64,000 nucleotides of DNA, taken from the IMG/VR virus record IMGVR_UViG_3300031134_000612; one strand, written 5' to 3'. The stretch's first letter is position 1; each line of letters opens with the position of its first letter. The translations under genes and the position numbers were made by a program. Shown here piece by piece: positions 13,021 through 63,167 of the stretch. Under the pieces are notes generated by a model. It saw only the letters and a list, made by a program, of their open reading frames with translations, was not told the DNA's origin and did not search any database. Origin of the DNA: a virus (taxonomy: Duplodnaviria; Heunggongvirae; Uroviricota; Caudoviricetes).

Positions 13021-13052
13021 AGAAAACTCCTAAATAATAGGCGATTATACCA

Positions 13053-13844: not shown

Positions 13845-13846
13845 GA

Positions 13847-14752: not shown

Positions 14753-14767
14753 TTTTAATATCCTATC

Positions 14768-17126: not shown

Positions 17127-17162
17127 AATATGGCAAGATTATACCATATTATTAGAGTTAAA

Positions 17163-17984: not shown

Positions 17985-19277
<1,293 letters not shown>

Positions 19278-19304
19278 CTATCTTAACATAGTAATACTAT
19301 TTAT

Positions 19305-20075: not shown

Positions 20076-20092
20076 GATTCAAACTCCTTTAT

Positions 20093-22414: not shown

Positions 22415-22466
22415 AAGAACTCCATAAAAGATGGCTTATTATAACACAAAAAAATAAAAAAATAAA

Positions 22467-23210: not shown

Positions 23211-23219
23211 GTGATCGCC

Positions 23220-24041
23220 TTAAATAGTGAGCATTTCTAATATTTTTATTTGGTTTTTAAAATTGTTGTCAAAGACAATATCAATGTCTACATTTTTAAA
23301 CAATTTACCTATCTTGTTTTTTATAAAAAACCGTCTACTGGATGTAATGTATTCGAATAATTCATCTTTACTAAGAAATTTTTTTTCTGCTGGTAGATAA
23401 TAATCATTAGTATTACTAGTAAAGTCAATTTCAACAAAATAACGGGGTGAAAAATCAAGAATCACGCTATACAACGTTGAAATATTAAGTTCATCATCAA
23501 AAAATAAAGAAGTCAGTGTTTCATTATTCAGTTTTGCTCGATTGTATATTTTTTTGTAAAATGCTGAATACTTGATATCATGTATTATTTTTACACCATT
23601 AAAAACAGCTTGAAAGTCATTGGTCATTGAATTAAAACGTTTAAATGACTGTATTGTCCCCAACAAATGATCATCAGATTGAACAAAATCAAAAATTTCG
23701 AAAGATTTTTTATAATCAACTGAAATAAAAGGCATAATTTTCTTTATTGATTGATAAATAGTATTTTCATTTTGATTTGGACCTTCAACAGTGATTTTCA
23801 TTGGATAATGTGCAACAGTCGAGTTAAATTTCTCATCATAGGAAAAAACCTTTGTGAACAGTTCAAAAGTATAAGTGTCATGCTCACTTGATGTAAATAC
23901 AATAAGGGCTGAACTATTTTTTGTATATGAGTAATGCATTGTCCCTTTATCTAAAAGACTTAAGATAATCTCACTGTATCGCTGAATAAACAATGCTGTA
24001 TGTTTGACTAGTTGTTCATGAGCTGTCATATCACACCTCAA
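23220..24041 (-). CDS. family member (273 aa; ends IKILEMLTI)
   Basis: Tandem array. Confidence 0.55.
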   Translation of the reverse strand: MRCDMTAHEQLVKHTALFIQRYSEIILSLLDKGTMHYSYTKNSSALIVFTSSEHDTYTFELFTKVFSYDEKFNSTVAHYPMKITVEGPNQNENTIYQSIKKIMPFISVDYKKSFEIFDFVQSDDHLLGTIQSFKRFNSMTNDFQAVFNGVKIIHDIKYSAFYKKIYNRAKLNNETLTSLFFDDELNISTLYSVILDFSPRYFVEIDFTSNTNDYYLPAEKKFLSKDELFEYITSSRRFFIKNKIGKLFKNVDIDIVFDNNFKNQIKILEMLTI

Positions 24042-24645
24042 TCATTTCACAAAGTGATAGGTGATCACGAATGGTAGATGGTGAAAGTTCAAAAAACGTC
24101 TTTTTGGACATACCAACTTTTGTCTTTTTGTTGACGATATAATGAAGCGAACCCATCGTTTCGGTATAGAACAGATTCAAGAGTTCTGGAATAGTCACTT
24201 TTTTGTGATTTTCATAAACGTCATTCACATTGCGATAAGTTAGCCAAATATCCCCCGTATCCAAATCAAACCAGAGATCTTTTTTGTTCATCAAGTGAAC
24301 AGGCCAGCACAAACGCATGAAATGCCCAGTATAGAGTTGTTTTTCGCCTTCGTGACGACATTCAAACTCAGTATCAAAGCGATAAAAGATGATCGATGTT
24401 TTGGCAATTTGACCACTGCTGGATTTACGGCGATAGGCTGGAGTATAAGTAATTCGTTCAAAAACAGTTGATTGAGATTTCAAATAAGTAAAAGTGGCTT
24501 CAAAACCATTACTCATGACACGGTTCATAAAGCTATCCACTGTAAAACCTTTATCCATGAAAGCACCAAGTTCAACACTTTTTTCAAAAGCGGCTTGAAC
24601 AAACGTCTTAACATTGGTGAAATCAAACAGGTTTAAATCTTTCAT
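24031..24645 (-). CDS. family member (204 aa; ends HLSLCEMIEV); first gene of the minus-strand array
   Basis: GGAG SD upstream; family tail. Confidence 0.55.
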   Translation of the reverse strand: MKDLNLFDFTNVKTFVQAAFEKSVELGAFMDKGFTVDSFMNRVMSNGFEATFTYLKSQSTVFERITYTPAYRRKSSSGQIAKTSIIFYRFDTEFECRHEGEKQLYTGHFMRLCWPVHLMNKKDLWFDLDTGDIWLTYRNVNDVYENHKKVTIPELLNLFYTETMGSLHYIVNKKTKVGMSKKTFFELSPSTIRDHLSLCEMIEV

Positions 24646-38066: not shown

Positions 38067-38121
38067 AACAAGACCTCAAAAAAAATAAACCTTATAGAAG
38101 TATAAGATTTATGTGATAATG

Positions 38122-38196
38122 TTGAAGAGGAAGGATTTGAACCTCCGACATACCCGCCCAAAATGCAGGCTGCTCTACCCACTGAGCTACCCTTCA
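38122..38196 (-). tRNA. tRNA-Lys (anticodon UUU), enterobacterial-like
   Basis: Cloverleaf: acceptor TGAAGGG/CTCTTCA, D-arm GCTC-AGTGGGTA-GAGC, anticodon loop ATTTTGG on a CCTGC/GCGGG stem, T-arm GGAGG-TTCAAAT-CCTTC. The D-arm is identical to that of E. coli tRNA-Lys. The anticodon assignment is slightly uncertain: position 37 is G and the stem may be 6 bp. Confidence 0.65.
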
Positions 38197-38244
38197 AACT
38201 CTTTAGAAAACAATAGAGCAACTAGGTTACTCTATTTTTAAAAT

Positions 38245-38321
38245 TGGTCGGAGTGGCAAGATTCGAACTTGCGGCATCTTGCTCCCAAAGCAAGCGGTCT
38301 ACCGGGCTGACCTACACTCCG
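38245..38321 (-). tRNA. tRNA-Pro (anticodon UGG) with encoded CCA
   Basis: Acceptor CGGAGTG/CACTCCG-A-CCA, D-arm GGTC-AGCCCGGTA-GACC, anticodon arm CTTGC-TTTGGGA-GCAAG, T-arm GCAAG-TTCGAAT-CTTGC. The anticodon loop matches that of E. coli proM. Confidence 0.85.
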
Positions 38322-43378: not shown

Positions 43379-44476
43379 ATGGGTGGTAATGCATTAGCTC
43401 TTGCCGTAGTAAACGGTAATCCTGAGCCGGTAGGCGTTCAATCAAAACGCCTTCACAAAAAAGATTTCGATAGCTTGACTGCCAAGGTAGTCAAAGTGTT
43501 GAATGCTGCCATTGAGAAAGCGAATGCGATGGGTGCTCATATTGTTCACGCTCCCCATGAAGTGAAAGCTTATCGCCAAAAGGAAACCTTTGGTGACCTT
43601 GATCTATTGGTGGATGGTGAGTTGTTTGCCTTTGTCACCTATGAAGAAGTGATGGAACTGCTTCGTGTTGAATTTAATCACGTTGGCCCATTGCCTTACA
43701 AACCAAAAGATAAAAAAGATATGGTAATGAGCATTGGTCTGCCTTCGGATGAAGATGCGGTTTATTTCCAGCTTGATTTGATTGCTTCTGAACGACCTTA
43801 CTACACCTTTCAGTCTTCTTATTTGAACTGGAATGACTTGGGTAACTTGGTTGGTGTGGTTGCTAGTTCTAATGGTTTCTTGAAATATGGTCATGATGGT
43901 TTGCGTTATTTGTTCCGTGATGGTGACAACCTCTTTGAGAGTGTTGTATTGACTAATGACTGGGATGAAGCGTTAGAATTCTTTGGTTACTCACAAGAAC
44001 GCTATTATGCTGGTTTTGATAGCCTGTTAGATATTTATGAGTATGCAGCATCAAGCCGTTATTTCAGCCCAAGTTTGTATGCGTTTGAAAACCGTAACCA
44101 TACACAACGTACTCGTGACCGTAAACGTCCAACGTATAATGGTTTCTTGAACTGGATTGAAGAAAAAGATGCTGTTGGTTATTTTAATGGTAAAACACCG
44201 ATGGACAGTGACAAGTGGAAAGAACGTGTCTATGAGTTCTTCCCAACCTTTGATCAGACTGAAATTGATACATGGGCAAAACTTGAACGCCGCAAAGTCT
44301 TTAAAGAGTATTTCAACGGTGGAAGGCTTTTGAAGTTCAAACCAGAACTCAAAAACAAAGAAATCAGTGATTATTTGAAAGCTCTTGAACAAAGTGTTAC
44401 CAATATCGAAGACTTTGTAATTGAGCATAAAGAAGACGCCGTTAGATTGTTGGTAGAAAAGAAAGAGTCTATGTAG
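43379..44476 (+). CDS. hypothetical protein (365 aa); possible nucleotidyltransferase-fold motif (ETFGDLDLLVDGE)
   Basis: AAGGAG SD. The G-D-h-D-h-h-h motif resembles the Pol-beta-type NTase acidic dyad (as in CCA-adding or MNT enzymes), but the upstream G[GS] element is not evident. Confidence 0.5.
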   Translation: MGGNALALAVVNGNPEPVGVQSKRLHKKDFDSLTAKVVKVLNAAIEKANAMGAHIVHAPHEVKAYRQKETFGDLDLLVDGELFAFVTYEEVMELLRVEFNHVGPLPYKPKDKKDMVMSIGLPSDEDAVYFQLDLIASERPYYTFQSSYLNWNDLGNLVGVVASSNGFLKYGHDGLRYLFRDGDNLFESVVLTNDWDEALEFFGYSQERYYAGFDSLLDIYEYAASSRYFSPSLYAFENRNHTQRTRDRKRPTYNGFLNWIEEKDAVGYFNGKTPMDSDKWKERVYEFFPTFDQTEIDTWAKLERRKVFKEYFNGGRLLKFKPELKNKEISDYLKALEQSVTNIEDFVIEHKEDAVRLLVEKKESM

Positions 44477-44529: not shown

Positions 44530-45330
44530 ATGATAGAGCCTAAATATATGTCCGAAGAAAAAATAAAAATTGAAAATAAATATTTGAGTGTTATAACAGA
44601 CAATGAAGACTTTCATAAGTTGTTTAATGTCAGCCGTAAAAACATACGGTATTACTTTGCTGCTTGTTTGAACACAAAAGACAAAGTTCGTCAATACATT
44701 AAAGAAACAAATACATCCATAATTAAACTTGATGATGATGTAGCAAGTATCATTGAAAGTTTATACGATATTCGTCCATATCATGCTCCTGAAAAAGATG
44801 ATTGTACAGAATATTGTGATATGAAGCGTCAAAACTCTAACGTATATGATGATTTCATTGAAAACCTAATGAGAAAATCTCATGCTCGACAACATATAAC
44901 ATTTGTTGACTACATTTCAGCCAATTTTAAAAAAGCTGATGTCGTCTTTTCGCATTTTTTCGACAATCCTAAAATCTGTGTGAGCTATCATACATCGCCA
45001 ATCATGATGTGTTTTAATTTTAATCAAAATGGTTTGAATATTGTGTACATGCTTAACAATCTTGACAACAATAAATCGATGTTAGATATCACAATTAGTC
45101 AAGATAAAAAAATAGTATCAACCGAAGTGTACTTCAATGGCGAAAAGAGTAATGAAAATGAAATGATTACACTAACCAGCAAACAATTAGACTATTTAAT
45201 CATATTAAGTCATTATACAGATGGGGAAGAAGTTGATTTTAGAGTAGAAAAGTACGTTGATGATATCCTAGCAGAAAATTATCAAGATTTGATGGATTAT
45301 ATAAAAGTTAAAGAAATGATGTATATTTAA
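44530..45330 (+). CDS. family member (266 aa; ends YIKVKEMMYI)
   Basis: Family tail. Confidence 0.5.
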   Translation: MIEPKYMSEEKIKIENKYLSVITDNEDFHKLFNVSRKNIRYYFAACLNTKDKVRQYIKETNTSIIKLDDDVASIIESLYDIRPYHAPEKDDCTEYCDMKRQNSNVYDDFIENLMRKSHARQHITFVDYISANFKKADVVFSHFFDNPKICVSYHTSPIMMCFNFNQNGLNIVYMLNNLDNNKSMLDITISQDKKIVSTEVYFNGEKSNENEMITLTSKQLDYLIILSHYTDGEEVDFRVEKYVDDILAENYQDLMDYIKVKEMMYI

Positions 45331-45343
45331 TTAACTTTATATT

Positions 45344-45376
45344 CAAAAAAAAGAACTGGAATTAAACCAGTTCTTT
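45344..45376. terminator. bidirectional terminator (GAACTGG-AATTAAA-CCAGTTC)
   Basis: A8 run, hairpin, T-run; the stop codon of 45362..45742 sits in the loop. Confidence 0.6.
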
Positions 45377-45742
45377 TACCTTAGCGTTGCGTTCACGGTC
45401 TTCTTTCAAGTGCTTGGCAATATCGACTACTTTGTCATTCAAATCAACAACACAAATACCATCAAACATCTTTACCAGAGCAGAGAAAGATTTCAAAGCG
45501 TCCATTGTATTATCATTCAATTGACTTTCTGTGTAGGTTCTAGGAGGCATTCCGATAGTCCTTGCACTATGACTCGATGTATAGAACAAACTTGAAATTG
45601 TAGTATTGTCAGATACCTTACGACCAGAGACATGCAGAGCTGTCAAAATATCTTCAACTTCTGGTTTATAGGTATCCACCAATACAGTTGGCAATGGTTC
45701 AGCTTTTGGAAACACAAAATCTAAGAAGGCTTTCGGAAGCAT
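45362..45742 (-). CDS. hypothetical protein (126 aa)
   Basis: ORF with no recognised domain. Confidence 0.45.
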   Translation of the reverse strand: MLPKAFLDFVFPKAEPLPTVLVDTYKPEVEDILTALHVSGRKVSDNTTISSLFYTSSHSARTIGMPPRTYTESQLNDNTMDALKSFSALVKMFDGICVVDLNDKVVDIAKHLKEDRERNAKVKELV

Positions 45743-45889
45743 AGTCGTTCTCCTATATAGTCAGAATATTATAATAACAAAAAAATAGAAAAATAGCAAT
45801 ATTTTAATTAAATAAATGTTTTTTTTGAAAATATAGGTTGATGAATTATAAATTTTATATATCATATACTGAATATATAGGAGAACAAC

Positions 45890-46183
45890 ATGGAACCGAC
45901 AATAGATTCTTTAAATAACAAAAGAACGGAAGAAAAAAAACAAATGAAGTACAACTTTAGAAACGCAATCGTATTTGCAGTTGTAGTTGTGCTCGTAAAC
46001 ATTATCTTCAGAATGAGTACTGATTTGAAAGCTTCTGCAGAATATGAAAATATTATAAACATATTAAATATTTTTTCTTTTCTTGGTGCAGGTACTGCTG
46101 TTCTTTTTTTTGTAAATTACATTTTTAATAAAAAAGATATCACAACATTAGAAAACAAGATATCAAAAATCAAAATAAACTAA
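45890..46183 (+). CDS. small membrane protein (2 TM)
   Basis: AGGAG SD; two hydrophobic segments. Confidence 0.45.
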   Translation: MEPTIDSLNNKRTEEKKQMKYNFRNAIVFAVVVVLVNIIFRMSTDLKASAEYENIINILNIFSFLGAGTAVLFFVNYIFNKKDITTLENKISKIKIN

Positions 46184-46210
46184 ATTGTAGGTTTTAACTA
46201 AAAATAACAG

Positions 46211-46216
46211 TTGACA
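46211..46216 (+). promoter_or_regulatory. -35-like TTGACA upstream of the thrS leader (the -10 is ambiguous: CACAAT or CAATAT)
   Basis: Consensus -35 hexamer about 47 nt upstream of the leader ATG. Confidence 0.35.
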
Positions 46217-46262
46217 TTTTTAGAAATAAAGATCACAATATAAGTAATTGGAGAAAATTCAG

Positions 46263-46340
46263 ATGAAATTATTTGCAGTAAACACAACGACCACAACAAC
46301 TCAGTTCAATAGCTGGGCTGGTCGATTGTTGCTGTATTAA
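46263..46340 (+). CDS. leader peptide with six consecutive Thr codons (MKLFAVNTTTTTTQFNSWAGRLLLY)
   Basis: GGAG SD 9 nt upstream. The 25 codons include ACA ACG ACC ACA ACA ACT in a row. It lies about 100 nt upstream of the ThrRS gene, with an intrinsic terminator in between. Confidence 0.6.
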   Translation: MKLFAVNTTTTTTQFNSWAGRLLLY

Positions 46341-46386
46341 AATAATCGGAACCACACAAACCCAGCTAAACGGCTGGGTTTTTTTA
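46311..46386 (+). promoter_or_regulatory. transcription-attenuator-like structure: antiterminator segment AGCTGGG (46311..46317) pairing with CCCAGCT (46361..46367), and terminator ACCCAGC-TAAACG-GCTGGGT + T7 (46360..46386)
   Basis: Mutually exclusive pairings around an intrinsic terminator immediately after a Thr-rich leader ORF. The Thr-codon stretch (CGACCACAACAAC) can also pair with TGGTCG and TTGTTG in 46319..46332. Confidence 0.55.
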
Positions 46387-46446
46387 TGCCTAAAATAAAT
46401 TATTAACACCATTAACAAACAAACTAAACTATCAAGGGGAAATAAA

Positions 46447-47625
46447 ATGAACGACAAATTAAATGAAGAAAAACGTTACATGCAAGTAGCCAAAGAAATG
46501 AACCTGTTCATGTTGGCTGAAAGTGCCGGTGTCGTTTACTGGAAACCAGAAGGTCTTAAATTGTATGAGAATTTAAAATCTTTTATTCGTAAACATCACG
46601 AAGACGAAGGCTATCTTGAAGTGAAAAGCCCATCTATTGTGGTACCTAATCTATTTGAACAATCTGGTCACATGGATAAATACAAAGACAATATGTTTTT
46701 CCTTAACTCATCCGAAGCCAGTAACTATGCTCTCCGTCCTATGAGCTGTCCTAACCACATCCTCATCTACCAATCTGAAAAAAGAAGCTACCGTGATTTG
46801 CCTTTACCTATCTTTGAATTTGGTGAAGTCTTCCGTAATGAGGCGTCTGGTGCTTTGCAAGTGTTATTTAGACAACGCCAGTTTTGCCAAGATGATAGTC
46901 ATGTTTTCGTCAATGAAGAGAATTTGATTGGTTCTGTCAATCAATTTATTCAGATGAGTCAAAAAGCCTATCAAGAGTTAGGTTTTAAAAATATCAAATA
47001 CGCCATTGCCCTACGTCCAGAAAAAAGATTTGGTGATGATAGCTTATGGGACAAAGCAGAAGAATCTTTGAGAGAAGCCTGCAGAATGAATAATCTTGAC
47101 TTTGAAGAGAATGAAAATGACGGGGCTTTCTATGGGCCAAAGCTAGAACTTCAAGTCGAAGATAAACTGGGCAGATCATGGCAATTAGGTGTTATACAGC
47201 TTGATTATGTCCTACCAGAACGTTTTGGATTAGAATACATTGATGCAGATAACAAACCTAAGCGTCCTATTATTCTTCATCATGCTGTCTTAGGGTCACT
47301 TGAAAGAATGATTGGGATCTTGTTGGAATCATTTGGCAAAGAAATTCCAGATTTCTTACACCCGATGAAATCAGTGATAATACCTGTTTCCGAAAAATCT
47401 ATGGAGTATGCTAAAATGGTGTATTCACATTTTGATAAGAAGTCATCAAAATTGGATCAAAGTGCTGATTCGTTAGGTAAAAAGATCAGATACTGGAAGG
47501 AACGTGGTGTGCCTGAGATTATTGTAGTGGGTGAAGCTGAACAAAATAAATATGAAAATGAAGGTGTCATAAGTTTTGTAGTAAACCGTGGAAAAGATAA
47601 AGAAGTTAGAGAAATTAAACAATAA
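46447..47625 (+). CDS. thrS: threonyl-tRNA synthetase catalytic core plus anticodon-binding domain; N-terminal N1/N2 (TGS and editing) domains absent
   Basis: The class II ThrRS signatures RPMSCPNH, FRNEASGALQVLFRQRQFCQDDSHVF and HHAVLGSLER keep the Zn-ligands (Cys, His, His), and there is a C-terminal anticodon-binding-like domain. The protein is 392 aa against about 640 aa for bacterial ThrRS, so the alignment begins at the catalytic domain. AAGGGGA SD. Confidence 0.85.
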   Translation: MNDKLNEEKRYMQVAKEMNLFMLAESAGVVYWKPEGLKLYENLKSFIRKHHEDEGYLEVKSPSIVVPNLFEQSGHMDKYKDNMFFLNSSEASNYALRPMSCPNHILIYQSEKRSYRDLPLPIFEFGEVFRNEASGALQVLFRQRQFCQDDSHVFVNEENLIGSVNQFIQMSQKAYQELGFKNIKYAIALRPEKRFGDDSLWDKAEESLREACRMNNLDFEENENDGAFYGPKLELQVEDKLGRSWQLGVIQLDYVLPERFGLEYIDADNKPKRPIILHHAVLGSLERMIGILLESFGKEIPDFLHPMKSVIIPVSEKSMEYAKMVYSHFDKKSSKLDQSADSLGKKIRYWKERGVPEIIVVGEAEQNKYENEGVISFVVNRGKDKEVREIKQ

Positions 47626-47642
47626 CAAAAGTAACTGGAATT

Positions 47643-47668
47643 AAAAGAGGCTTCGGCCTCTTTTTTTA
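47643..47668. terminator. bidirectional terminator (AGAGGC-TTCG-GCCTCT + T7)
   Basis: Tetraloop hairpin plus T-run. Confidence 0.7.
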
Positions 47669-48286
47669 TTGGTAATACATGATTATCGTTTTCTTTTCAT
47701 CTTCTGACATTTCCACAATGGTCTTATCCAGTATCGGTTTGAAATAAATTTCTCGAAATTGCTCATGAATGAATTGCACTTGTTTATTGACATCTTGAAG
47801 TTTTGGATAAGCAAACTCATGAAGAACAATATCATTGGCTGTTTTCATAGACAGATAAGGTAATGCAATAGGTTGATTGTTGTCAGGTCTTAAATAAAAT
47901 ACATTAGTAAAATAAAACCGCTTAGTTTCAAGGGTTAAATTTTCTTTATCACGAGTATGTTTTTCAATCAATAGCACGTTTTCTAAGAAAGCCATGAATA
48001 GTTTTCGTGATTGAACATGTTCAGCATAAGTCATAACTAAATTACTTTCATTGACAGAGTTTTTATGGAATTTAAAAGTGTTTTTATAGAATAAGTCATG
48101 TTCATCAGACATGCTATCGTCCATATCAAAGAAACCTTCTCCAGCAATGATAAAGTTATTTTCACTAAACGCTTGATCAAAAGAGATCTTGGCTGAATGT
48201 CTGTATATTTCCCCTTCACAATAGGTATAGGTATACTTATTGTTATTTAACTGATCCCGTAAAAATCGATTGAAATTGTTAATCAT
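47666..48286 (-). CDS. family member, subfamily B (206 aa; ends KKTIIMYYQ)
   Basis: Tail pattern and tandem position. Confidence 0.5.
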   Translation of the reverse strand: MINNFNRFLRDQLNNNKYTYTYCEGEIYRHSAKISFDQAFSENNFIIAGEGFFDMDDSMSDEHDLFYKNTFKFHKNSVNESNLVMTYAEHVQSRKLFMAFLENVLLIEKHTRDKENLTLETKRFYFTNVFYLRPDNNQPIALPYLSMKTANDIVLHEFAYPKLQDVNKQVQFIHEQFREIYFKPILDKTIVEMSEDEKKTIIMYYQ

Positions 48287-48295
48287 AAAAAGCCC

Positions 48296-48964
48296 TCAAT
48301 AATAATACATCTTAACGATTTGCTTTTCTGATCGAGTAAGCTTATCTGTTACATCCTTTTTTTCAATAATTTTTGAATAATATCGTTTATAAAACTCATT
48401 GTCAATGACTTTCATTGCAGCATTAAAATTATCCTCAGTGTTTTTAACGATAATGTAGAGTTCTTCCAGCAAACCATAGGCTTTAAACTTAAAAATTATT
48501 TTCTGATAGATTTGTTGTTTTATCGAATCAAACACATACACAGGACAGATTTCAAACATATTGAGGTTGCTGTATATCGGCTTTCGTTTAGTATTGATTT
48601 CACTGCCAGCATTGATATTTTTTAAATGTTCCATAATACGGATGAACGCTTGCTTAGCATAAAGATCATCAATGTTATTAAAATCAAACTTATAACGAAG
48701 ATTTTTTTTAGAAGGTTCTTCATCAATGATAAATGAGCATTCATGTTCCAAATCATGATAGAAATAGAGTAAATTGCCGACTGTAAATTGAAAGGGTTCA
48801 TCTTTTCGATAGCGAATGTCACCAGAAGGTGTTAAAAGTTGGACTTTGATTGAATAGCCAAATGATATTGAATAGTGATATCGGCCATCACTGATAACAT
48901 CTTTTAAATAGGAGTTAAATGACTCCATGTATTCTTTATTAATGGTAGGTTTAAGTTCAAGCAT
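48296..48964 (-). CDS. family member, subfamily B (222 aa; FYKRYYSKIIEKK ... QIVKMYYY)
   Basis: Shares the KRYY..I.E(K/R)K...(S/K)(E/K)(K/E)Q.L.KM(Y/V)Y(Y/F) C-terminus with 48966 and 49695. Confidence 0.55.
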   Translation of the reverse strand: MLELKPTINKEYMESFNSYLKDVISDGRYHYSISFGYSIKVQLLTPSGDIRYRKDEPFQFTVGNLLYFYHDLEHECSFIIDEEPSKKNLRYKFDFNNIDDLYAKQAFIRIMEHLKNINAGSEINTKRKPIYSNLNMFEICPVYVFDSIKQQIYQKIIFKFKAYGLLEELYIIVKNTEDNFNAAMKVIDNEFYKRYYSKIIEKKDVTDKLTRSEKQIVKMYYY

Positions 48965-48965
48965 G

Positions 48966-49661
48966 TTAAAAATAAACCATTTTAATGAGTTCTTGTTCTT
49001 TTTTACTCAAGAATTTACCACGTTCAATAGTCTTACGCTCAATAATATCATCGTAATAACGTTTTTGAAACTGAGCTTCCATGTCATCCATTGCCATCAA
49101 GAATTTATGATCATCATTCAAAACAACGATAGTATGCTCAGGAATCCCTTTGAATGCTTTGAAATGAATACGAGCACATTTACTGACGATTTTACTAGTT
49201 CGGTCGTATCGGTAAAAGCAATTGACTTTAAAGGTATCGGTTTCAAAATCAACCAGTTCTCTTTTACGTTTAATATCGTGTGCTTCATTCAACAAACGTA
49301 AATGTTTTTTTAATCGAATGAAAAACTCATCGAAATGAAATCTATACACATAATCAAACTTAACAGGCTTGCTTTTATCTTTTGGAGATTGAGCAAGAAA
49401 AAAAGAAATTTCAGAAGCAGAATCATAATTACATAATTCGGGTGATCTTAAAACGGCAACAAGATAGGACTCATCAAAAGATTCAATATGACCTTTACCC
49501 CAGCTATTTATTTCAATAACCCGAGTTCTACGCCCATCAGCCTGAAGTGGGTATCGGACAATGCTAGTATTTGTAAACCCATATTCATGATGTTTATCAG
49601 TAAACTTTGCAGAGAAATATTTACTCAGTTCTTCTGCTTTATTGATCTCTTTTTTAAACAT
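48966..49661 (-). CDS. family member, subfamily B (231 aa; FQKRYYDDIIERK ... ELIKMVYF)
   Basis: As above; also YGFTNTSIVRYPLQADGRRTRV, shared with 49695 (YGVNQFGICRYPLNTDGNRIRV). Confidence 0.55.
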   Translation of the reverse strand: MFKKEINKAEELSKYFSAKFTDKHHEYGFTNTSIVRYPLQADGRRTRVIEINSWGKGHIESFDESYLVAVLRSPELCNYDSASEISFFLAQSPKDKSKPVKFDYVYRFHFDEFFIRLKKHLRLLNEAHDIKRKRELVDFETDTFKVNCFYRYDRTSKIVSKCARIHFKAFKGIPEHTIVVLNDDHKFLMAMDDMEAQFQKRYYDDIIERKTIERGKFLSKKEQELIKMVYF

Positions 49662-49694
49662 GATAAATAACCTTTCGTAATTTAAGAGAGTGTA

Positions 49695-50429
49695 TCAGTA
49701 GTACATCATTTTGACAAGAGTTTTTAAGTCATTATCCCAAAGAGAAATATCCGCTAATTTGTAAAGGTCATCAAAACTAATTCGTGGAAAAGCTTCTCTT
49801 ATTTTTTCTTTGTAATAACGTTTAAAGAATTCCATATCCATATTTTTCATGGTCGATTGCGACGTTAAATCATGATTAGTAATATAGGAAGTTATATCTC
49901 TGGCACCTAATGATGAGTCGAAACCAATAAAAGTAACCGTAATGACTTTCGAAAATGATTGGCTAAGCTGGTCATATTTAAAACTGGAGTACAATTTAAA
50001 CTGATCACCTTGAACAAATCTGAAAGGTAATTGAATGGATTCTTTATTAATAATCTCTAAATGCTGATTGAATCGATTGATAAAGTTTTCGATATTCTTG
50101 CAAGATAAATTACCGAAATGATTAGAATAAATATCATCAATTTCAGTAGGTATAGCAAAATAAAGCGAACTAGGAGTGTCAGCCTGTGATGAAATAATAG
50201 AAGCTACACTATCGGATTTGTCAAAAGTATCATAGCCATCAGAAAAAAAGGATGATGATTCCATTGATACACGAATACGATTACCATCAGTGTTTAAAGG
50301 ATATCGACAAATACCAAATTGATTGACGCCATATTCGAATTCATTGTTAGTAAAATTGTCAACAAAAAAATCCAGAAGACCATGTATAGGGTATTTTTTC
50401 TTCCTTTCTTCCGTTATTTTTTCGATCAT
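49695..50429 (-). CDS. family member, subfamily B (244 aa; FFKRYYKEKIRE ... LVKMMYY)
   Basis: As above. Confidence 0.55.
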   Translation of the reverse strand: MIEKITEERKKKYPIHGLLDFFVDNFTNNEFEYGVNQFGICRYPLNTDGNRIRVSMESSSFFSDGYDTFDKSDSVASIISSQADTPSSLYFAIPTEIDDIYSNHFGNLSCKNIENFINRFNQHLEIINKESIQLPFRFVQGDQFKLYSSFKYDQLSQSFSKVITVTFIGFDSSLGARDITSYITNHDLTSQSTMKNMDMEFFKRYYKEKIREAFPRISFDDLYKLADISLWDNDLKTLVKMMYY

Positions 50430-51224: not shown

Positions 51225-51794
51225 TTAAATGAAGCTCATTCGAATCACATCAATTGCGTCTGTGCTCAATGTAGTCAAAGGTTTTTGCAATTCTTCTGGT
51301 AAGCTGTCCTTTATAACGTTTCTTTTATAGAAATCAAACAAATAATCTTCAATAACATTTAGGTCACTATCAGGAATTTCAATAATTAAAATATCATAAT
51401 CACCATTATCTAAATTAATAAATTCAAAACTCTTTGCCATGATAATACTAGCATGTTCATCTAATAGATAATATGTTCGTTCAAGAGAACAGGCTTCATC
51501 AAGGTTAAAAACATTCTCATACTGGTTAATAAGTCTAATTGATTTTGATTGAAATGAATACTTTTTTTCAAGATATTCTGTTAATTGAAAAAAAAGTGGG
51601 TGACTCTGTGAAGGACAAAAAGAACTTCCTTCTTCTACTGTTACATTATTGAATAACGTTGAATCCTCATAGACGAGCTTTGGGATTTTAGATCGAAAAT
51701 CCTCTTTTGTAATATTATGTTCTATACAAAAATCTTGGATTTGCTCATAAATTAAATCGTATGAAAAATCTGTTGTTTTAATCATGGTTGTCAA
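51225..51794 (-). CDS. family member, subfamily C (189 aa; LPEELQKPLTTLSTDAIDVIRMSFI)
   Basis: Shares the N-terminal (IYxxIQD-F/Y-C...IT-E/K-x-x-FR) and C-terminal (L/F)P(E/S)EL(K/Q)KP(L/I)(T/S)(T/Q)L motifs with the next two genes. Confidence 0.55.
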   Translation of the reverse strand: MTTMIKTTDFSYDLIYEQIQDFCIEHNITKEDFRSKIPKLVYEDSTLFNNVTVEEGSSFCPSQSHPLFFQLTEYLEKKYSFQSKSIRLINQYENVFNLDEACSLERTYYLLDEHASIIMAKSFEFINLDNGDYDILIIEIPDSDLNVIEDYLFDFYKRNVIKDSLPEELQKPLTTLSTDAIDVIRMSFI

Positions 51795-51800
51795 TCCTTT

Positions 51801-52361
51801 TTAAATGGTAATCATACGAATAAGATCAATTTCAACTTTAGAAAGCTGGCTCAATGGTTTTTTTAACTCTGATGGGAAGCTTTTATTCGTGAAATGAGCT
51901 AAATAATAATCAAACAATTGCTGTTCAAAAGCCATAGGATCACTATCACTGAATTCAGTCAACAGCATATGGTCAGCATCAGAATTTAATTCAAAAAATC
52001 TAAATGTATATTGTTCTCTTAATTCATGATTATTATCAATAGAATAATATGTTAAAAGCCTATAACACTCTTTTTTATTAGGATTAAACAAGAGATCATA
52101 CTGTTCAACTATCGGAGAAAGTTTAGATGTAAATGAATATTTATCATGTAGATATTTAACTACATCACGAAAAAGTGGATTAACTCGCTCTGGGTAAAAT
52201 ACTGTAGACCTTTCAAGCGTCACATGGTCTATTAAAAATGAAAAATAAAAAAGAGGTGGAAAACCCAGTCGAAAAGATTTTTCTGTAATGCCTTTACTTT
52301 CACAATAATCTTGAATATGTGAATAGATGGTATTGAGTGAGAATGTATCCGATGTACTCAT
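51801..52361 (-). CDS. family member, subfamily C (186 aa; FPSELKKPLSQLSKVEIDLIRMITI)
   Basis: As above. Confidence 0.55.
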   Translation of the reverse strand: MSTSDTFSLNTIYSHIQDYCESKGITEKSFRLGFPPLFYFSFLIDHVTLERSTVFYPERVNPLFRDVVKYLHDKYSFTSKLSPIVEQYDLLFNPNKKECYRLLTYYSIDNNHELREQYTFRFFELNSDADHMLLTEFSDSDPMAFEQQLFDYYLAHFTNKSFPSELKKPLSQLSKVEIDLIRMITI

Positions 52362-54017: not shown

Positions 54018-55892
54018 TTAGCTTGCAATGTATTTAGCTACAAATTCAGCTTCGGTCAAGATTTCAATATCAACACCTTTTGCTTTCAAGGCTTGGGCGT
54101 CAGCAAGTTTACTGCCAGCACTTTCACCATAAACAAGAATTTGTGTTGTCTTGCTTGCTTTGCTTTGAATCTTAGCACCTTTCGAAGTAAAGAAGGCTTC
54201 AATCTCTTTACGTGAGTAGCTGACCATTGTGCCAGTTACTACAACGTTCTTACCAGAGAATGGGCTATCGTTATCTACAACTGCTTGTGAAGACACTTCA
54301 AGGTTGAACAAAGGACGCAAGGCGTTAATCAATTCAAGTTTTTCTTGAATACCGGCTGGAATAATAACGCTATTCACTTTACCGTAACCTTTAATCTTGA
54401 TCAATTTATCTGCTTCTACTTCATGCAAGGCATCAATATTGAAGATTTTAAGCAACTTTTTGGAGTCGCCTTTACCAAGGCTCGAAATACCAAAAGCTGC
54501 AAGGAAACGCCAGTCTTCAATTTTGCTGGTTTTACTGGTTTCAAGAGCAGCAACCAAGTTAGGGCTTTCACCTTTACCAAAACCGGCTGTCAAGAAATCT
54601 TGCTCATTCATTGCGTAAATCTTTGGCAAGGTGTCAAAACCTGCTTCAACCAACTTAGCAACTGTTTTACCACCAAAACCATCGTTGTTATCCAAAGTTG
54701 AGAAGAAGTGCAACAACGTCTGGCTAATTTGTTCTGAGCAACCCGAGTGGTTAGGGCAGAAAAGGAAATGGCTTTCCCATTCAAGCACGGTATCGCAGCA
54801 AGGGCAATTGGTTGGAACAGTGTATTCAGCTTCTTTAAGCACTTTTTCGATTTTAGGAATAACTTCACCGCTACGAATGATTTCAATAACAGCACCCGGC
54901 CCGATTTTATTAGTGCGAACGTTGTTCATGTGGTGAGCGGTCACGTTACTGATGGTCGCACCAGAAACAAGAACTGGATCAACAGCAAGAACTGGGGTAA
55001 CGGTGCCCGTGCGGCCTACTTGAAGTTTAACGTCAAGCACAGTAGTTTGGGCAGTTTCGCCACGTTCTTTGAATGCACATTGCCATTTGTTGTGATGGTT
55101 GTTGTAACCCATGTATTCTTTGATTTCTGGAACAATGGATTCAATCACAAAGCCGTCAATCAAGTAAGGGATTGCAGCACGAAGTTCATCGTTGATTTTT
55201 TCAAGATTTTCCAACAAGTCTTCGGCAGTACCAACATACGCTTGCAAAGTGGTGTAAGGCACAAAGTGAATAGCACCATCGTCCAACGCCTTCTGAGTTT
55301 CGGCACGAGTGTCTTCCTGAGACAAAACACTGCTCATCATGTTACGTGGATGTGGGAACATCGAAGCAAGGTTTTCTTCAAAATAAGTTTTTTCGATAAC
55401 CAATTCACCACGACCTTCGGCATTTTCTTTACGAATAACACCTTTATCAAAGATGTAGGTAATATCGTTACCACGAACACCATCACCACGGGTCGCCAAC
55501 TTATCAAATTCGTAAGAACCAGCAAAACCATCAAGTTTGCAGGTGACTTTATACATCGCTGGAATATGAAGATCATGAGCTACATCTTCAACACGCTTGA
55601 ACCATTTAGCCAACTTTTCTTTGGTGTAGAATTTTTCGGTAGACAGCATAGGAGAAGAGTGAGTAATAGCATTTTCGCCTACTTCTTCTTTATCAATGTC
55701 TTCAAACCAACTTGATTCTGGGAACTTTTCACGGAAATCTTCGACAATGGCATCGTAATTTTCATCTTCAATAGGATCTAGACCAAATACTTCTGTCTTA
55801 GGAAGAGATTTTACATAGCATTTACTGTAGTCATCAAGCAGTGCAATAAATTCTGCTTCGGTTACTGGGTATTTTACGTCATTAATATTCAT
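54018..55892 (-). CDS. ligA: NAD-dependent DNA ligase (LigA-type) with Ia, adenylation, OB, Zn-finger, HhH and BRCT domains
   Basis: KxDG adenylation motif (CKLDGFAG), Cys4 zinc finger (CPCCDTVLEWESHFLFCPNHSGC), and a C-terminal BRCT-like segment (GKNVVVTGTMVSYSRKEIEAFF...GVDIEILTEAEF); GGAG SD. Confidence 0.9.
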   Translation of the reverse strand: MNINDVKYPVTEAEFIALLDDYSKCYVKSLPKTEVFGLDPIEDENYDAIVEDFREKFPESSWFEDIDKEEVGENAITHSSPMLSTEKFYTKEKLAKWFKRVEDVAHDLHIPAMYKVTCKLDGFAGSYEFDKLATRGDGVRGNDITYIFDKGVIRKENAEGRGELVIEKTYFEENLASMFPHPRNMMSSVLSQEDTRAETQKALDDGAIHFVPYTTLQAYVGTAEDLLENLEKINDELRAAIPYLIDGFVIESIVPEIKEYMGYNNHHNKWQCAFKERGETAQTTVLDVKLQVGRTGTVTPVLAVDPVLVSGATISNVTAHHMNNVRTNKIGPGAVIEIIRSGEVIPKIEKVLKEAEYTVPTNCPCCDTVLEWESHFLFCPNHSGCSEQISQTLLHFFSTLDNNDGFGGKTVAKLVEAGFDTLPKIYAMNEQDFLTAGFGKGESPNLVAALETSKTSKIEDWRFLAAFGISSLGKGDSKKLLKIFNIDALHEVEADKLIKIKGYGKVNSVIIPAGIQEKLELINALRPLFNLEVSSQAVVDNDSPFSGKNVVVTGTMVSYSRKEIEAFFTSKGAKIQSKASKTTQILVYGESAGSKLADAQALKAKGVDIEILTEAEFVAKYIAS

Positions 55893-59857: not shown

Positions 59858-60655
59858 TTAAATATACATCATTCTAATCAGTTCAAGTTCTCGTTTATTA
59901 AACATTTTATTGGTGTTTAAAAAGTGAGTAAAGCTACGACCATAAAGTTTCGTCACACTAATCTCACAACGTTTAAGAATATCACTCAGTAAAATAGATT
60001 CCAGTTCGCCTGATTTGAATACAAAATAATAAACATCATAGATATTAATATCGTTTAAAATGGTTCCATCTTCTTGGATGATACTTTTAATAGGTCGCTC
60101 AACCACCATAGGAACTGTACCATTAACACCTTTTTGAACGGCTCTATTATCTTCCAAGAAATACCAAATTTGTTCAATTTTAAAAGTAACAGGATCAATT
60201 TCATAAGACATGCTTTTTAAATAAACATTGGTCTGCAATCGTTTTGGTTTTGAAAATGTAATTTTTTTAGGCAATCCATCTTGATCAAAATCTACGGTAT
60301 ACGTTAATGAGTAATGATCACCTTTAACAAAAGAAGCACGTCTAATTACATAATAAGATTGCTCAATTTTATCAATAATTGCTGGGGCTAATTCAAGACT
60401 ACAATCTTTGTTGTTAGTATATTTCAGGCTGTTTTCACTAAAATCAAACCCGATATCATAAAAATATTGATTGAGTTCACCTAAACAAAAATCAAACTGC
60501 ATACAATAACTTGAACTTTCAACAATGTTCATAATAAGTGGTTTATACGCTTCACCGCTTTCTTTATTCACCAGATAACGATCTACATAATGAAATTCAA
60601 TTCTAGATAAAAAATCTTCTTTATTCACTTCGGGCATATTTGACTCCATAATCAA
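59858..60655 (-). CDS. family member, subfamily D (265 aa; NINIYDVYYF ... ELELIRMMYI)
   Basis: Close paralog of 60665..61453 and 62316..63167. Confidence 0.55.
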   Translation of the reverse strand: MIMESNMPEVNKEDFLSRIEFHYVDRYLVNKESGEAYKPLIMNIVESSSYCMQFDFCLGELNQYFYDIGFDFSENSLKYTNNKDCSLELAPAIIDKIEQSYYVIRRASFVKGDHYSLTYTVDFDQDGLPKKITFSKPKRLQTNVYLKSMSYEIDPVTFKIEQIWYFLEDNRAVQKGVNGTVPMVVERPIKSIIQEDGTILNDINIYDVYYFVFKSGELESILLSDILKRCEISVTKLYGRSFTHFLNTNKMFNKRELELIRMMYI

Positions 60656-60664
60656 TAATCGTAT

Positions 60665-61453
60665 TTAGATATACATCATTTCAATGATATCCCGTTCTCT
60701 TTTAGTAAACATTTTAGACATAGTAAGAAAATCAGTATAATCCGTGCCATACATTCTAGCACAACTAAAATCACATTGAGTTAATATATCAATCAATCGT
60801 ATTTCTTTAGATTTGCCATGTAACGTATAGTAAACATCGTAGATGTTCACATTCTCAAATGAACGAGCATTCTCAATTACTTTTTTTAATGGATGTTCAA
60901 TGATCATTGTGACATAACCATTAATACCTTTTTGAAGTTTCCTGCTGTCGTTAAAACAATAACCAATTTGCTCAATTTTAAGCGTGTCACGATCTATGAT
61001 ATAATGAATTGTTTTAAGCGTAAGTCCTTTTAGTATTTTGTTGGCTGATTTAAACGTTCGTGAAACTGGAATGCCTTGTAAAGTGTAAGATGTATAATAA
61101 CTATGGGCATAACGATCATTCTTCGTAAATTCGACCCATTGTAAAACATAACAATCCTTCACAACTTCATTTTCAACGAGAATGGTTAAATCCATTTGAC
61201 AGCCTTGAGCATCACTAAAATTCAAATTATCTTGTTCAGATGAAAAGCCAACTGATAATAAAAAATCTTGTAAGAGTGATTTCTTTAAATTAAATTTTAT
61301 GATTTGAGAGAAATCATTCAACCTAGAAATAAAATTTTCTTGGTATTCATGCATATTATGTTCAGTAATGACATGAGTTTCCAAATAGCGATATTCAATT
61401 TCTGCTTCGAGTTGGGTAGGCTTTGTGGTATTCATATATTTAGCGTCATCCAA
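60665..61453 (-). CDS. family member, subfamily D (262 aa; NVNIYDVYYT ... ERDIIEMMYI)
   Basis: As above. Confidence 0.55.
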   Translation of the reverse strand: MDDAKYMNTTKPTQLEAEIEYRYLETHVITEHNMHEYQENFISRLNDFSQIIKFNLKKSLLQDFLLSVGFSSEQDNLNFSDAQGCQMDLTILVENEVVKDCYVLQWVEFTKNDRYAHSYYTSYTLQGIPVSRTFKSANKILKGLTLKTIHYIIDRDTLKIEQIGYCFNDSRKLQKGINGYVTMIIEHPLKKVIENARSFENVNIYDVYYTLHGKSKEIRLIDILTQCDFSCARMYGTDYTDFLTMSKMFTKRERDIIEMMYI

Positions 61454-61554
61454 TAATTTGCTACATATTATACTATTTTGCCTAATAAATCAATTGAATT
61501 GTTGATTTTCTTTTTTAATTTGCTATCCTATTACCTAAGAAAAGGATACTGAAC

Positions 61555-62310
61555 ATGAATATGAAAAAAGTTAAATTAGCAGACTTATTTGAACAATATG
61601 GTGCTCATTATATTCCCACATATCACGCCAGCATAGAAAAAGGTATTATATTTGAAATAGAAAAGAAACTGGGCCGTAAGCCACCAGACGCCACTAATAC
61701 TTTCATGTATCTTAGTGAAGCGATATCCGTTTTTAAATCAAGGCTACAAGAAGACTATAATAATTTAGTGGATTATCACACTGAGGAATTAATACAGCTT
61801 AGTAAAAATAATTTCTTATCAAATTTCATCAATAAAGATAAGAAAGAAAAGATCCGTCATCATCAATTAAGACTGGAAGAATTACACACCGCCTATATAA
61901 CCAGTGATAAAAACCGTTGTGTTACGAATGAAACTATTACTTTCAACATGCATCAAACTGACATTAAAGACCATGCTTACTTGCATGTTGTAGATCTTAC
62001 CAAAGAAGATCAAATGTCCATTGAACGTATTTATATTAACAATTTAATTCCCTTTATAGATAATGAGAATAATATTAGTTTAAAACTGAACGTTACAGCT
62101 TTTGACGTAAAAAAAATAGAAATCATCAATCCAGAATTCATTAATAATCATTTAGAACCCGTGGAAGGATATCATATTTTTAATTGTCGAGAACGGGCTT
62201 ATGATTTCTCAATAGAAGAACTCATGAAAAGTCAGTATAATGAAGATATAAAAATGAGACTAAAACTTGCCAAGCAAGTAGATAACTTATTTGGCTATGG
62301 TGGTTATTAA
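61555..62310 (+). CDS. hypothetical protein (251 aa)
   Basis: ORF with SD; the only plus-strand gene in this stretch. Confidence 0.5.
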   Translation: MNMKKVKLADLFEQYGAHYIPTYHASIEKGIIFEIEKKLGRKPPDATNTFMYLSEAISVFKSRLQEDYNNLVDYHTEELIQLSKNNFLSNFINKDKKEKIRHHQLRLEELHTAYITSDKNRCVTNETITFNMHQTDIKDHAYLHVVDLTKEDQMSIERIYINNLIPFIDNENNISLKLNVTAFDVKKIEIINPEFINNHLEPVEGYHIFNCRERAYDFSIEELMKSQYNEDIKMRLKLAKQVDNLFGYGGY

Positions 62311-62315
62311 TGATA

Positions 62316-63167
62316 TTAAAAGAAAGCCATTTCAATAATTTTTAACTCATCTTCATTAAAAATATTTTCAATGTTTATGAACTTGTCCATACTTTCACCA
62401 ATCATTCGCTCATGGCTAAAACCACAAACTTGAATAATATCAGCCAGTGAAAACGATCTAATACGATTCTCATCAAAGGTTAATGCATATCGGATATCAA
62501 ACATTGAAATATTTTCAAATCTTTTATCATCAATGACCACAAATTCAAATCGCTCTTCTTCAATTCGATGAATACTGTAATCCAATGTTTGAGCATAGGT
62601 CGCTGTTCGTAAAGTATCCGATGTATTGATTTCAGCGTGATCTAAATCAAATAGGTTGGACGTATGATAAATAGAACCAATTCTATAAGTTGCTTCATCT
62701 ATATTCATACTATAACCAAATCGAAAATTATAAGCACCGGCTGAATAACGTTCATCATCATGAACATAACTTACATTAATACGATAAGCATGTTCAAAAT
62801 CAAAAGCAATTCGTTTCCTATACTCTGGATGATTAAGTAATGACAGATAATATCCACACTCGTGTCGGGATTTTTGATAAGGTGATAAATCGAATGAAAA
62901 TCCAGAATCATGAGTATACACGCTGCGTTGTTCTCTTTTAAATCCTAGACTTTCTAAAAATATATCTACTTCACGAATCGAAAACTGAAAAAGCATAAAG
63001 AAACAGTCTTCTTGAAAAATATCAAGAAACATTTGCTCAGTGAAAGTCTTAGCCAATTCGGGAGTAATCACATATTCAGTAAGTTGTTTATTAAGATAGT
63101 CATAGTCAGGGGTATTAAATTTTTGTAGATTCACTATTGATCTCCTAGCACAATGCCATTTCAGCAA
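62316..63167 (-). CDS. family member, subfamily D (283 aa; NISMFDIRYA ... ELKIIEMAFF)
   Basis: As above. Confidence 0.55.
   Translation of the reverse strand: MLKWHCARRSIVNLQKFNTPDYDYLNKQLTEYVITPELAKTFTEQMFLDIFQEDCFFMLFQFSIREVDIFLESLGFKREQRSVYTHDSGFSFDLSPYQKSRHECGYYLSLLNHPEYRKRIAFDFEHAYRINVSYVHDDERYSAGAYNFRFGYSMNIDEATYRIGSIYHTSNLFDLDHAEINTSDTLRTATYAQTLDYSIHRIEEERFEFVVIDDKRFENISMFDIRYALTFDENRIRSFSLADIIQVCGFSHERMIGESMDKFINIENIFNEDELKIIEMAFF

Follow-up and report, generated by a model that had tools for sequence, protein, structure and literature searches.

A candidate threonine-codon attenuator in the leader of a short threonyl-tRNA synthetase gene

The 64,000-nt DNA of IMG/VR record IMGVR_UViG_3300031134_000612, referred to here at its full length as the window, contains a gene for a threonyl-tRNA synthetase (ThrRS) that is preceded by a short leader segment (46211-46446) with the apparent layout of an amino acid attenuator. 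The gene, thrS, encodes 392 residues and occupies positions 46447-47625; like all elements of the locus described below, it lies on the plus strand. The leader segment begins with a sigma-70-like promoter, composed of TTGACA (46211-46216) and CACAAT (46234-46239) with a 17-nt spacer between them; this site agrees with the consensus at 10 of 12 positions and is the top promoter-like match within 45300-48400. Reading of the sequence then gives a GGAG Shine-Dalgarno (SD) element (46251-46254) and a leader open reading frame (ORF) of 25 codons plus stop, which extends from an ATG at 46263 to a TAA at 46338-46340 and encodes MKLFAVNTTTTTTQFNSWAGRLLLY. This ORF includes six consecutive Thr codons (ACA ACG ACC ACA ACA ACT, 46284-46301), which we designate region 1. 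Downstream is a GC-rich hairpin of 10 pairs, AAACCCAGCU-AAAC-GGCUGGGUUU (46358-46381), whose 5′ arm (region 3) spans 46358-46367 and whose 3′ arm (region 4) runs into a T7 tract (46372-46385, with the T residues at 46379-46385). The end of this intrinsic terminator is 61 nt from the thrS start codon at 46447, and the thrS SD, AAGGGG, is at 46434-46439. A second predicted intrinsic terminator (47643 to about 47664-47671) follows thrS, and the transcription unit is monocistronic, closed by its own terminator.

The leader also contains a second set of complementary segments, which are arranged so that two hairpins compete for one strand. Region 2a (AGCUGGGC, 46311-46318) serves as the 5′ strand of the antiterminator in nascent-transcript folds and duplex-energy calculations, and its AGCTGGG (46311-46317) is exactly complementary to CCCAGCT (46361-46367) in region 3. 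Region 3 is thus common to both structures; the alternative pairing overlaps exactly the 5′ arm of the terminator, and the antiterminator and terminator are mutually exclusive. Region 1b (CUCAGUU, 46300-46306) pairs with 2a in the minimum free energy (MFE) fold of the untranslated RNA. Region 2b (about 46319-46331) has two possible partners, either the Thr codons (the 1:2 hairpin) or region 2c (46341-46354), with which it makes the inner hairpin of the antiterminator. The loop of that 2b:2c hairpin includes the stop codon of the leader (46338-46340). All of the components of a leader-peptide attenuator are therefore present in the segment: a leader ORF led by an SD, tandem Thr codons, a rho-independent terminator, an antiterminator and an anti-antiterminator. 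The initial annotation of this DNA had reported the 25-codon ORF (46263-46340) with its GGAG and six Thr codons, an intrinsic terminator about 60 nt before thrS, and the complementarity of AGCTGGG to the terminator 5′ arm, and each of these was found again on re-reading. The window has a single run of six ACN codons, compared to 0.01 expected from shuffled sequences. A scan of the entire 64 kb for short ORFs with a homopolymeric amino acid run and a downstream hairpin and T-run returned the Thr leader alone.

The enzyme encoded downstream is an unusually short ThrRS. It matches the Pfam families tRNA-synt_2b (PF00587, 5e-42) and HGTP_anticodon (PF03129, 7e-12), and it scores 397.2 bits against TIGR00418 (cut-off 383.65) over profile positions 173-536 only. 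Among solved structures, it can be aligned with E. coli ThrRS (1qf6_A) over residues 242-616, and with N-terminally truncated crystallization constructs; as judged from its sequence, it is composed of the catalytic and anticodon-binding domains, and lacks the N1 and N2 (TGS and editing) domains. Each of its 120 best relatives in the database is likewise short (359-415 amino acids), and these proteins therefore represent a distinct short-ThrRS family rather than a truncated gene; at canonical thrS loci, the median N-terminal extension is 242 amino acids. The motifs RPMSCPNH, QDDSH and HHA, which we take to hold the zinc ligands (C334, H385 and H511 in E. coli), are invariant in 29 homologues. 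A search of viral contigs with the window ThrRS protein gave no match. BLAST searches of phage and plasmid collections, made with the locus and with the protein as queries, yielded no relative above about 43% identity, from which we conclude that the short-ThrRS family is absent from those collections. A scan of genome contigs with a short-ThrRS alignment settled on generic ThrRS motifs (RPMSCPNH), and recovered only canonical thrS genes, at ∼40% identity.

To examine the leader in relatives, homologous DNA was fetched by exact protein look-up of short-ThrRS homologues, a procedure that is blind to the upstream sequence. The ten loci obtained comprise L084 (95% identity), L083 (78%), L085 (68%), L086 (66%), L119 (66%), L088 (62%) and L118 (57%), along with L120, L121 and L122, which came from a second search seeded with the GC-rich P0111. 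All ten (57-95% identity, 31-61% GC) have the same succession of a leader ORF with a Thr run, a hairpin with a T-run, an SD and thrS, and all ten have an upstream complement of the terminator 5′ arm. The homologous leaders contain 4-8 consecutive Thr codons, as in MNKFVFNTTTTTTLLKAGLVGYCLE, MNFKNVKNTTTTTQPKRLGVFVHS, MFNFIAITTTTTTTCQNTGQVVTCLR, MNFFKTTTTTTTLLYSWEVVILS and MKNMIQIATTTTTTSLKRWACCRL, and, in contexts of 57-61% GC, in MYFSFATTTTTTTTALRPVAERTRT, MSFFRTTTTTTTTSPTGLAVVSAFVVPGSP, MYLSFVTTTTTTTAQAQRPVDERTRT and MFHHAAIATTTTRSPPGVWSRAR; the last of these lies on a contig of an isolate, Variovorax sp. GT1P44. Conservation of the Thr run among related genomes, which the initial annotation had raised, is thus borne out in 10/10 look-up loci and 18/18 distinct leaders. 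Other features recur as well. Of 15 homologous leaders, 13 have a promoter-like site (TTGAnn, 16-18 nt, TAnnnT-like) 19-31 nt 5′ of the leader ATG, most homologues have an SD-like GGAG, AAGG or AGGA 8-12 nt before that ATG, and all have a GGAG-type SD for thrS. In the leaders with a divergent terminator sequence (L087, L119, and the GC-rich L118, L120 and L121), region 2 is altered in step.

A degenerate DNA pattern (Thr run, gap, CCCAG, loop, CTGGG) was also scanned over a metagenome collection, and gave 27 loci, of which 11 are upstream of a short thrS, 15 are chance occurrences within coding DNA or at its ends, and the remaining one, L098, is leader-like. The L098 element (7421-8160, minus strand) encodes MNCLLKKINTTTTTYRKGCV with five Thr codons, is followed by a CCCAGCC/GGCUGGG terminator, and lies upstream of a gene of ∼200 amino acids whose N-terminus, inspected by eye, resembles isochorismatases. 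This element could represent a Thr attenuator in front of an unrelated gene, or a chance arrangement.

Comparison of the leaders indicates which of their properties are under selection. The codons ACA, ACC, ACG and ACU interchange freely within the Thr run, the flanking peptide is not conserved, and leader lengths and C-termini vary freely with no conserved residues outside of the run; as read from these sequences, it is the codons of the Thr run that are conserved, subject to synonymous variation. The second conserved element is the RNA box GCUGGGCUGG (core GCUGGG), which is read in all three frames (AGC UGG GCU, GCU GGG CUG and AGG CUG GGU), and is translated as S-W-A, A-G-L or R-L-G depending on the leader. 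The peptide motifs SWAG and AGLV are therefore only apparent, and the box is conserved as RNA. In all 14 AT-rich leaders, the antiterminator pairing starts 7-11 nt past the last Thr codon. This spacing fits the stalled state of an attenuator, since a ribosome whose A site holds a Thr codon other than the last would cover the Thr codons and CUCAGUU and leave the box free.

Pair counts based on a MAFFT alignment of the 14 AT-rich leaders are in line with this picture. For the antiterminator, 82% of cells are paired, compared to 15-59% when the strands are slid with respect to each other, and none of 500 shuffles reached as high a value; its covariation score is 0.129 vs 0.058, a level reached in 1/500 shuffles. 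The terminator is paired in 98.5% of cells and has three compensatory pairs.

RNA folding was used to compare the alternative structures. The leader folds better than shuffled sequences (z of -2.8 for 46245-46450 and -4.1 for 46280-46390), and the MFE structure of the full untranslated leader (-42.5 kcal/mol) contains both the 1:2 hairpin and the terminator, which alone contributes a hairpin of -15.1 kcal/mol. In this structure, CAACGACC of the Thr-codon stretch pairs with GGUCGAUUG, and CUCAGUU pairs with AGCUGGG. The partner of the Thr-codon stretch is GGUCGAUUGUUG (46320-46331), which agrees with the initial annotation, where the stretch was proposed to pair with the region 46319-46332. In only 7 of 15 homologues is the 1:2 hairpin the predicted minimum for untranslated nascent RNA that ends before the terminator 3′ arm. 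When the leader is truncated from the 5′ side, the MFE structure becomes the antiterminator, in which AGCUGGGC pairs with ACCCAGCU and encloses a 46319-46330:46341-46354 hairpin; an inner hairpin equivalent to 2b:2c is predicted in the homologues too.

Equilibrium folding of the complete leader was tried as a test and set aside, as it returns the terminator in every case, even with a stalled ribosome, and folds of nascent transcripts were used instead. With the transcript extended to the terminator loop and a ribosome masked on Thr2-Thr4, 14 of 15 sequences have region 2a paired to the 5′ arm of the terminator, the fifteenth being one whose terminator was mis-parsed by the script; in the window, 46311-46318 pairs with 46360-46367. 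Blocking region 4 leaves 6-14 nt of the 5′ arm paired with upstream sequence in every one of the 18 distinct leaders, and this holds also for the GC-rich ones, in which the terminators are unrelated in sequence. The 2a:3 duplex of the window has an energy of -14.9 kcal/mol, compared to -8.0 ± 2.3 kcal/mol with shuffled region 2, and in 16 of 18 sequences the duplex of regions 2 and 3 is better than at least 95% of those with a shuffled region 2.

One further observation concerns the possible origin of these structures. Positions 46290-46317 and 46351-46378 form a 28-nt direct repeat that is 75% identical, and the inner leader hairpin CUCAGUU-CAAU-AGCUGGG, with ACCACAACAA on its 5′ side, resembles the terminator hairpin and its 5′ flank. 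This repeat suggests that the inner leader hairpin of the attenuator may have arisen by duplication of the terminator hairpin.

We interpret the element as a Thr-specific, ribosome-mediated (leader-peptide) transcription attenuator of an editing-domain-less thrS, and assign this reading a probability of roughly 85%. The three-hairpin logic with sensing of Thr-tRNA and gating of thrS, as put forward in the initial annotation, is strongly supported by the comparative and folding evidence. In the mechanism that we envisage, transcription would start from the promoter at 46211-46239, and a ribosome would initiate on the 25-codon leader. With ample charged tRNA-Thr, the ribosome would pass the six Thr codons and reach the stop codon at 46338, where it would occupy or disrupt 2b and 2c and part 2a from 3; the terminator (46358-46381 plus U7) would form, and RNA polymerase would halt near 46385, about 60 nt short of thrS. 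If the leader were not translated, the Thr stretch and CUCAGUU would pair with 2b and 2a (1:2), and the terminator would again form. With charged tRNA-Thr scarce, the ribosome would stall on the Thr codons (46284-46301), hiding regions 1 and 1b, and leaving 2a (AGCUGGG, which starts 9 nt past the last Thr codon) free. CCCAGCU of region 3 would pair with 2a once transcribed, the two being juxtaposed by the nested 2b:2c hairpin, and the 2a:3 duplex would block the terminator, resulting in read-through into thrS and more ThrRS. The sequence elements, their conservation and the mutual exclusivity of the pairings come from the present analysis, and the scheme further presumes termination, stalling, coupling of transcription and translation, and a physiological response to charging.

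Several results weigh against such an interpretation. At equilibrium, the terminator conformer is favored even with a stalled ribosome (-25.4 vs -21.5 kcal/mol in the window; median difference of -5.0 kcal/mol among the sequences compared), and so the switch must be kinetic, with 2a:3 formed before region 4 is made; the trp attenuator likewise relies on kinetic antitermination. The proposal that the antiterminator can compete with the terminator thus stands in part: nascent folds with a stalled ribosome give the antiterminator, but the terminator is 3.9 kcal/mol more stable at equilibrium. In addition, a ribosome that has reached the leader stop codon sits over 2b and 2c, but not 2a, and the “at stop” folds still permit 2a:3 pairing across the masked stretch. 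Basal termination would then have to rest on steric separation or on reformation of 1:2 in this model, and folding programs cannot represent the steric separation of 2a from 3 by a ribosome at the stop codon. The antiterminator duplex of L122 is no better than shuffles, and that of L118 is marginal. True covariation is limited by the near-invariance of the GCUGGG/CCCAGC core among the AT-rich leaders. Finally, the 11 additional short-thrS examples came from a pattern that itself required the features in question.

The alternative that fares best, although we consider it improbable, is that the leader and its hairpins act on thrS translation or mRNA stability, or that the leader RNA is a trans-acting small RNA (sRNA), with the Thr run still sensing charging. 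Attenuator-derived sRNAs are known, such as rnTrpL of Sinorhizobium (PMC6614838), and given the thermodynamic dominance of the terminator, most of the product would be leader RNA that has terminated. A trans-acting function would supplement cis attenuation, however, rather than substitute for it. For mechanisms other than termination, the predicted fold is unfavorable, as the ∼50 nt that separate the thrS SD from the terminator have no structure and the SD is exposed rather than sequestered, and a hairpin with U7, combined with an alternative pairing over exactly its 5′ arm, is a signature of termination control.

We think it very unlikely that the hairpin and T-run are a plain terminator, insulating thrS from upstream transcription, with a Thr-rich ORF beside it by chance. 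There is an upstream ORF on the same strand (45890-46183) with no predicted terminator of its own, as this explanation would have it, but the promoter-like site lies between that ORF and the leader. Furthermore, the upstream neighbor is on the opposite strand in eight homologous loci (L084, L085, L086, L088, L118, L120, L121 and L122), and the hairpin is therefore not the terminator of an upstream gene there. A chance origin of the ORF is at odds with the 0.01 six-ACN runs expected per window, and with the occurrence of the Thr run in every distinct leader across 31-61% GC.

Control by ThrRS itself through an E. coli-type operator, or by uncharged tRNA through a T-box, with the leader ORF irrelevant, has in its favor that experiments have established just these two modes for thrS; we consider it very unlikely here. 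The window leader and 15 homologous loci contain no Rfam leader, T-box or riboswitch at the gathering score. The T-box covariance model in particular gave no match to 46100-46500 at the gathering score or at E up to 10, and none to the 15 homologous loci. The Rfam Thr_leader (RF00506) scores 14.1 bits against the window (E of 4.9), compared to a gathering score of 55, and the element is not a member of that family; the nearest Rfam leader is Phe_leader at 22.3 bits, also against 55, which is not significant and covers the terminator only. For an operator, an anticodon-arm-like hairpin would be expected, but none is present beside the thrS SD in the predicted fold, and the window ThrRS lacks the N-terminal domains that E. 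coli repression needs. Caillet and co-workers reportedly found in 2003 that the N-terminal domains of E. coli ThrRS are needed to block ribosome binding in repression.

The least probable idea, that the 25-residue product is a functional Thr-rich small protein and not a sensor, could appeal to the SD and conserved position of the ORF, but fails to account for the lack of shared residues outside of the Thr run and for SWAG and AGLV being a single RNA box in different frames.

The preferred reading, an attenuator that responds to Thr-tRNA, can be compared to a number of known systems. It follows the same principle as the enterobacterial thr, trp and his leaders. E. coli thrL (RF00506) likewise has a short ORF with a Thr run, 1:2, 2:3 and 3:4 hairpins, an intrinsic terminator and Thr-tRNA sensing by stalling. 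The E. coli leader mixes Thr and Ile codons, and controls the threonine biosynthesis genes thrABC, whereas the window element controls a synthetase; with no detectable homology in sequence or structure, the two are functional analogues only. The thrS genes of other bacteria are tied to tRNA-Thr charging or to ThrRS level by different devices. The B. subtilis T-box senses uncharged tRNA and the E. coli thrS operator binds ThrRS, and neither motif is present in the window leader. The E. coli operator is translational, and mimics the anticodon arm of tRNA-Thr. A ThrRS without N-terminal domains could not use this type of protein-operator repression, which acts by blocking ribosome binding, but could still be feedback-regulated by way of a leader. 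T-box control of B. subtilis thrS and thrZ was reportedly described by Putzer et al. 1992 (cited in PMC4787780).

Leader-peptide attenuation of an aminoacyl-tRNA synthetase (aaRS) gene has precedents. In gamma-proteobacteria, E. coli pheM-pheST is an attenuated cognate synthetase operon (PMC1262725), although it uses Phe codons and encodes a heterotetrameric housekeeping PheRS. For Streptomyces trpS and leuS, a leader ORF with cognate codons, an antiterminator and a terminator have been predicted (PMC1262725); these differ from the window element in amino acid, phylum and sequence, and have 1-3 regulatory codons compared to 4-8 here. Attenuation has been demonstrated experimentally for the auxiliary, antibiotic-resistant trpRS1 of S. 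coelicolor (Vecchione and Sello 2010, listed as ref. 57 in PMC4787780), which is auxiliary as the Variovorax short thrS described below apparently is accessory. Leader-peptide attenuation has also been predicted for hisS paralogues in Bacillus (PMC2965389). The closest proposal for thrS itself is a tentative thrL-thrS arrangement in S. lividans TK24, in which a Thr-dependent leader peptide upstream of thrS was suggested (PMC8079986); the evidence is much weaker, as that leader has two Thr codons only (MKRVRPFLETTPGFVPAR) and its authors found no U-rich terminator. In our literature search, we found no paper describing a Thr-run attenuator on thrS.

Leaders with Thr runs also precede canonical thrS genes. 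In a control set made up of the 80 canonical loci from the genome-contig scan, 75 of which were analyzable, an MTPRTTT... leader occurs 5′ of full-length thrS in eight Burkholderiales loci. The genera with this type are Polaromonas, Inhella, Roseateles, Massilia, Telluria and Undibacterium, and RTTTTR is found in Aquitalea and Sutterella. The MTPRTTT and RTTTTR leaders are located at ∼1610-1760 in L002, L004, L008, L017, L019, L027, L045 and L056, at 1630-1760 in L036, and at 1620-1760 in L063. By automated criteria, nine loci of the control set combine a Thr-rich leader ORF with a hairpin and T-run, seven of them among the ten named Betaproteobacterial loci. The Betaproteobacterial leaders have 3-5 Thr codons, most being followed by a hairpin and T-run; none of them is in Rfam, and we found no publication describing them. 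They have no sequence similarity to the window leader and their enzyme is the full-length housekeeping ThrRS; this comparison covers their leader ORFs and terminators. Since such leaders stand before canonical thrS genes, the design principle is probably widespread, and the window element is correspondingly less surprising. The initial annotation had regarded the coupling of an attenuator to thrS as unexpected; in view of these leaders and of the pheST, trpS/leuS and hisS precedents, that degree of surprise is not supported.

The mechanism is a textbook one, and what is new is its occurrence on the short-thrS family, by which thrS joins a short list of aaRS genes under leader-peptide attenuation. 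The comparative support is unusually clean, extending to all homologues examined and over a twofold range of GC content, and makes the element a candidate for a curated RNA family. The nature of the enzyme adds a question of fidelity. Without an editing domain, Ser-tRNA-Thr could not be cleared in cis, and a ThrRS of this kind that is induced only at Thr-tRNA shortage might misacylate with Ser under stress. In this respect the short ThrRS resembles inducible auxiliary or antibiotic-resistant synthetases (thrZ, trpRS1).

The attenuator appears to be specific to thrS within the window, since the genes for two other synthetases lack such features. The region upstream of the TyrRS gene (4006-5280), at 5281-5494 on the minus strand, has a short ORF encoding MNASNTFHFQKSFTVRY, no Tyr-codon runs and no obvious terminator, and the SerRS gene (17985-19256) is only 48 nt past its upstream ORF.

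The genomic context of thrS differs from that proposed at first. The initial annotation had described the synthetase as borne on a mobile element, which is unsupported here because no integrase, repeat or compositional break was found near the window thrS. Instead, relatives, both near-identical and more distant, are located on large contigs of 0.3-1.85 Mb (among them Ga0310127_000002 with 1.04 Mb, Ga0247725_1000001 of IMG 3300024308 with 1.54 Mb and Ga0308423_1259934 of IMG 3300028584 with 1.85 Mb) and synteny is kept: upstream ORFs are shared with the 95% and 78% relatives, and ligA (54018-55892 in the window) is a few kb downstream in both the window and the 78% relative. Only the Variovorax copy has marks of insertion nearby. 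In Variovorax sp. GT1P44 (JBPJZT010000039.1, L120; 61% GC), the short thrS has a 4-Thr leader, and is flanked by a tyrosine-recombinase remnant and an insertion sequence (IS) transposase fragment (3968-4686 and 6944-7066). The recombinase-like DNA is 81.6% identical to a plasmid of Variovorax sp. RA8. As read from these sequences, this thrS is probably an accessory, horizontally acquired copy, and the strain, being cultured, makes the cassette open to experiment.

About 10 of the 60 window ORFs tested against Pfam have a match (TyrRS, SerRS, ThrRS, LigA, a TnpB-like protein, an S49 peptidase, SPFH, Bax1-I, NUDIX and a weak Y_Y_Y); 30 ORFs were compared to PHROGs, with few and ambiguous matches, and 10 to NCBIfam. 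The window also has two tRNAs (38121-38321), and one 437-kb relative is filed in IMG/VR. The replicon may belong to a reduced and highly divergent bacterium, or may itself be a giant element related in type to phages or plasmids. A broader notion, which we regard as possible but doubtful, is that an attenuated, editing-less ThrRS is a signature of very large, ORFan-dominated replicons, both AT- and GC-rich, whether giant phage- or plasmid-like elements or a divergent host-dependent lineage, with the cassette also on small mobile islands as in Variovorax. The enzyme would then be a back-up ThrRS that reads the charging of host tRNA-Thr, and would be produced only upon failure of host charging, as caused for example by starvation, host shut-off or a ThrRS inhibitor.

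Some minor features of the window may be mentioned. An ORF of 365 amino acids (43379-44476) is a conserved neighbor of thrS in the relatives at 95%, 78% and 68% identity; it has a PHROG match labelled DNA polymerase (phrog_24943, 1e-33), and no match in Pfam, NCBIfam or PDB sequences. The only recognizable mobile-element gene in the window is a TnpB or Cas12f-like (OrfB_IS605) ORF of 473 amino acids (1329-2750; PHROG transposase match of 1e-44), which is 44 kb from thrS. A run of ORFs of 250-300 amino acids (12205-24645) was considered as one tandem paralogue family, and rejected when BLAST showed only small, weakly similar sets. Small tandem sets of weakly similar ORFs, with 20-38% identity, are on the minus strand at 19305-20854, 48296-50429, 51225-52361 and 59858-63167. 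One of them is a trio located ∼0.7 kb downstream of thrS on the opposite strand, past an ORF at 47666-48286.

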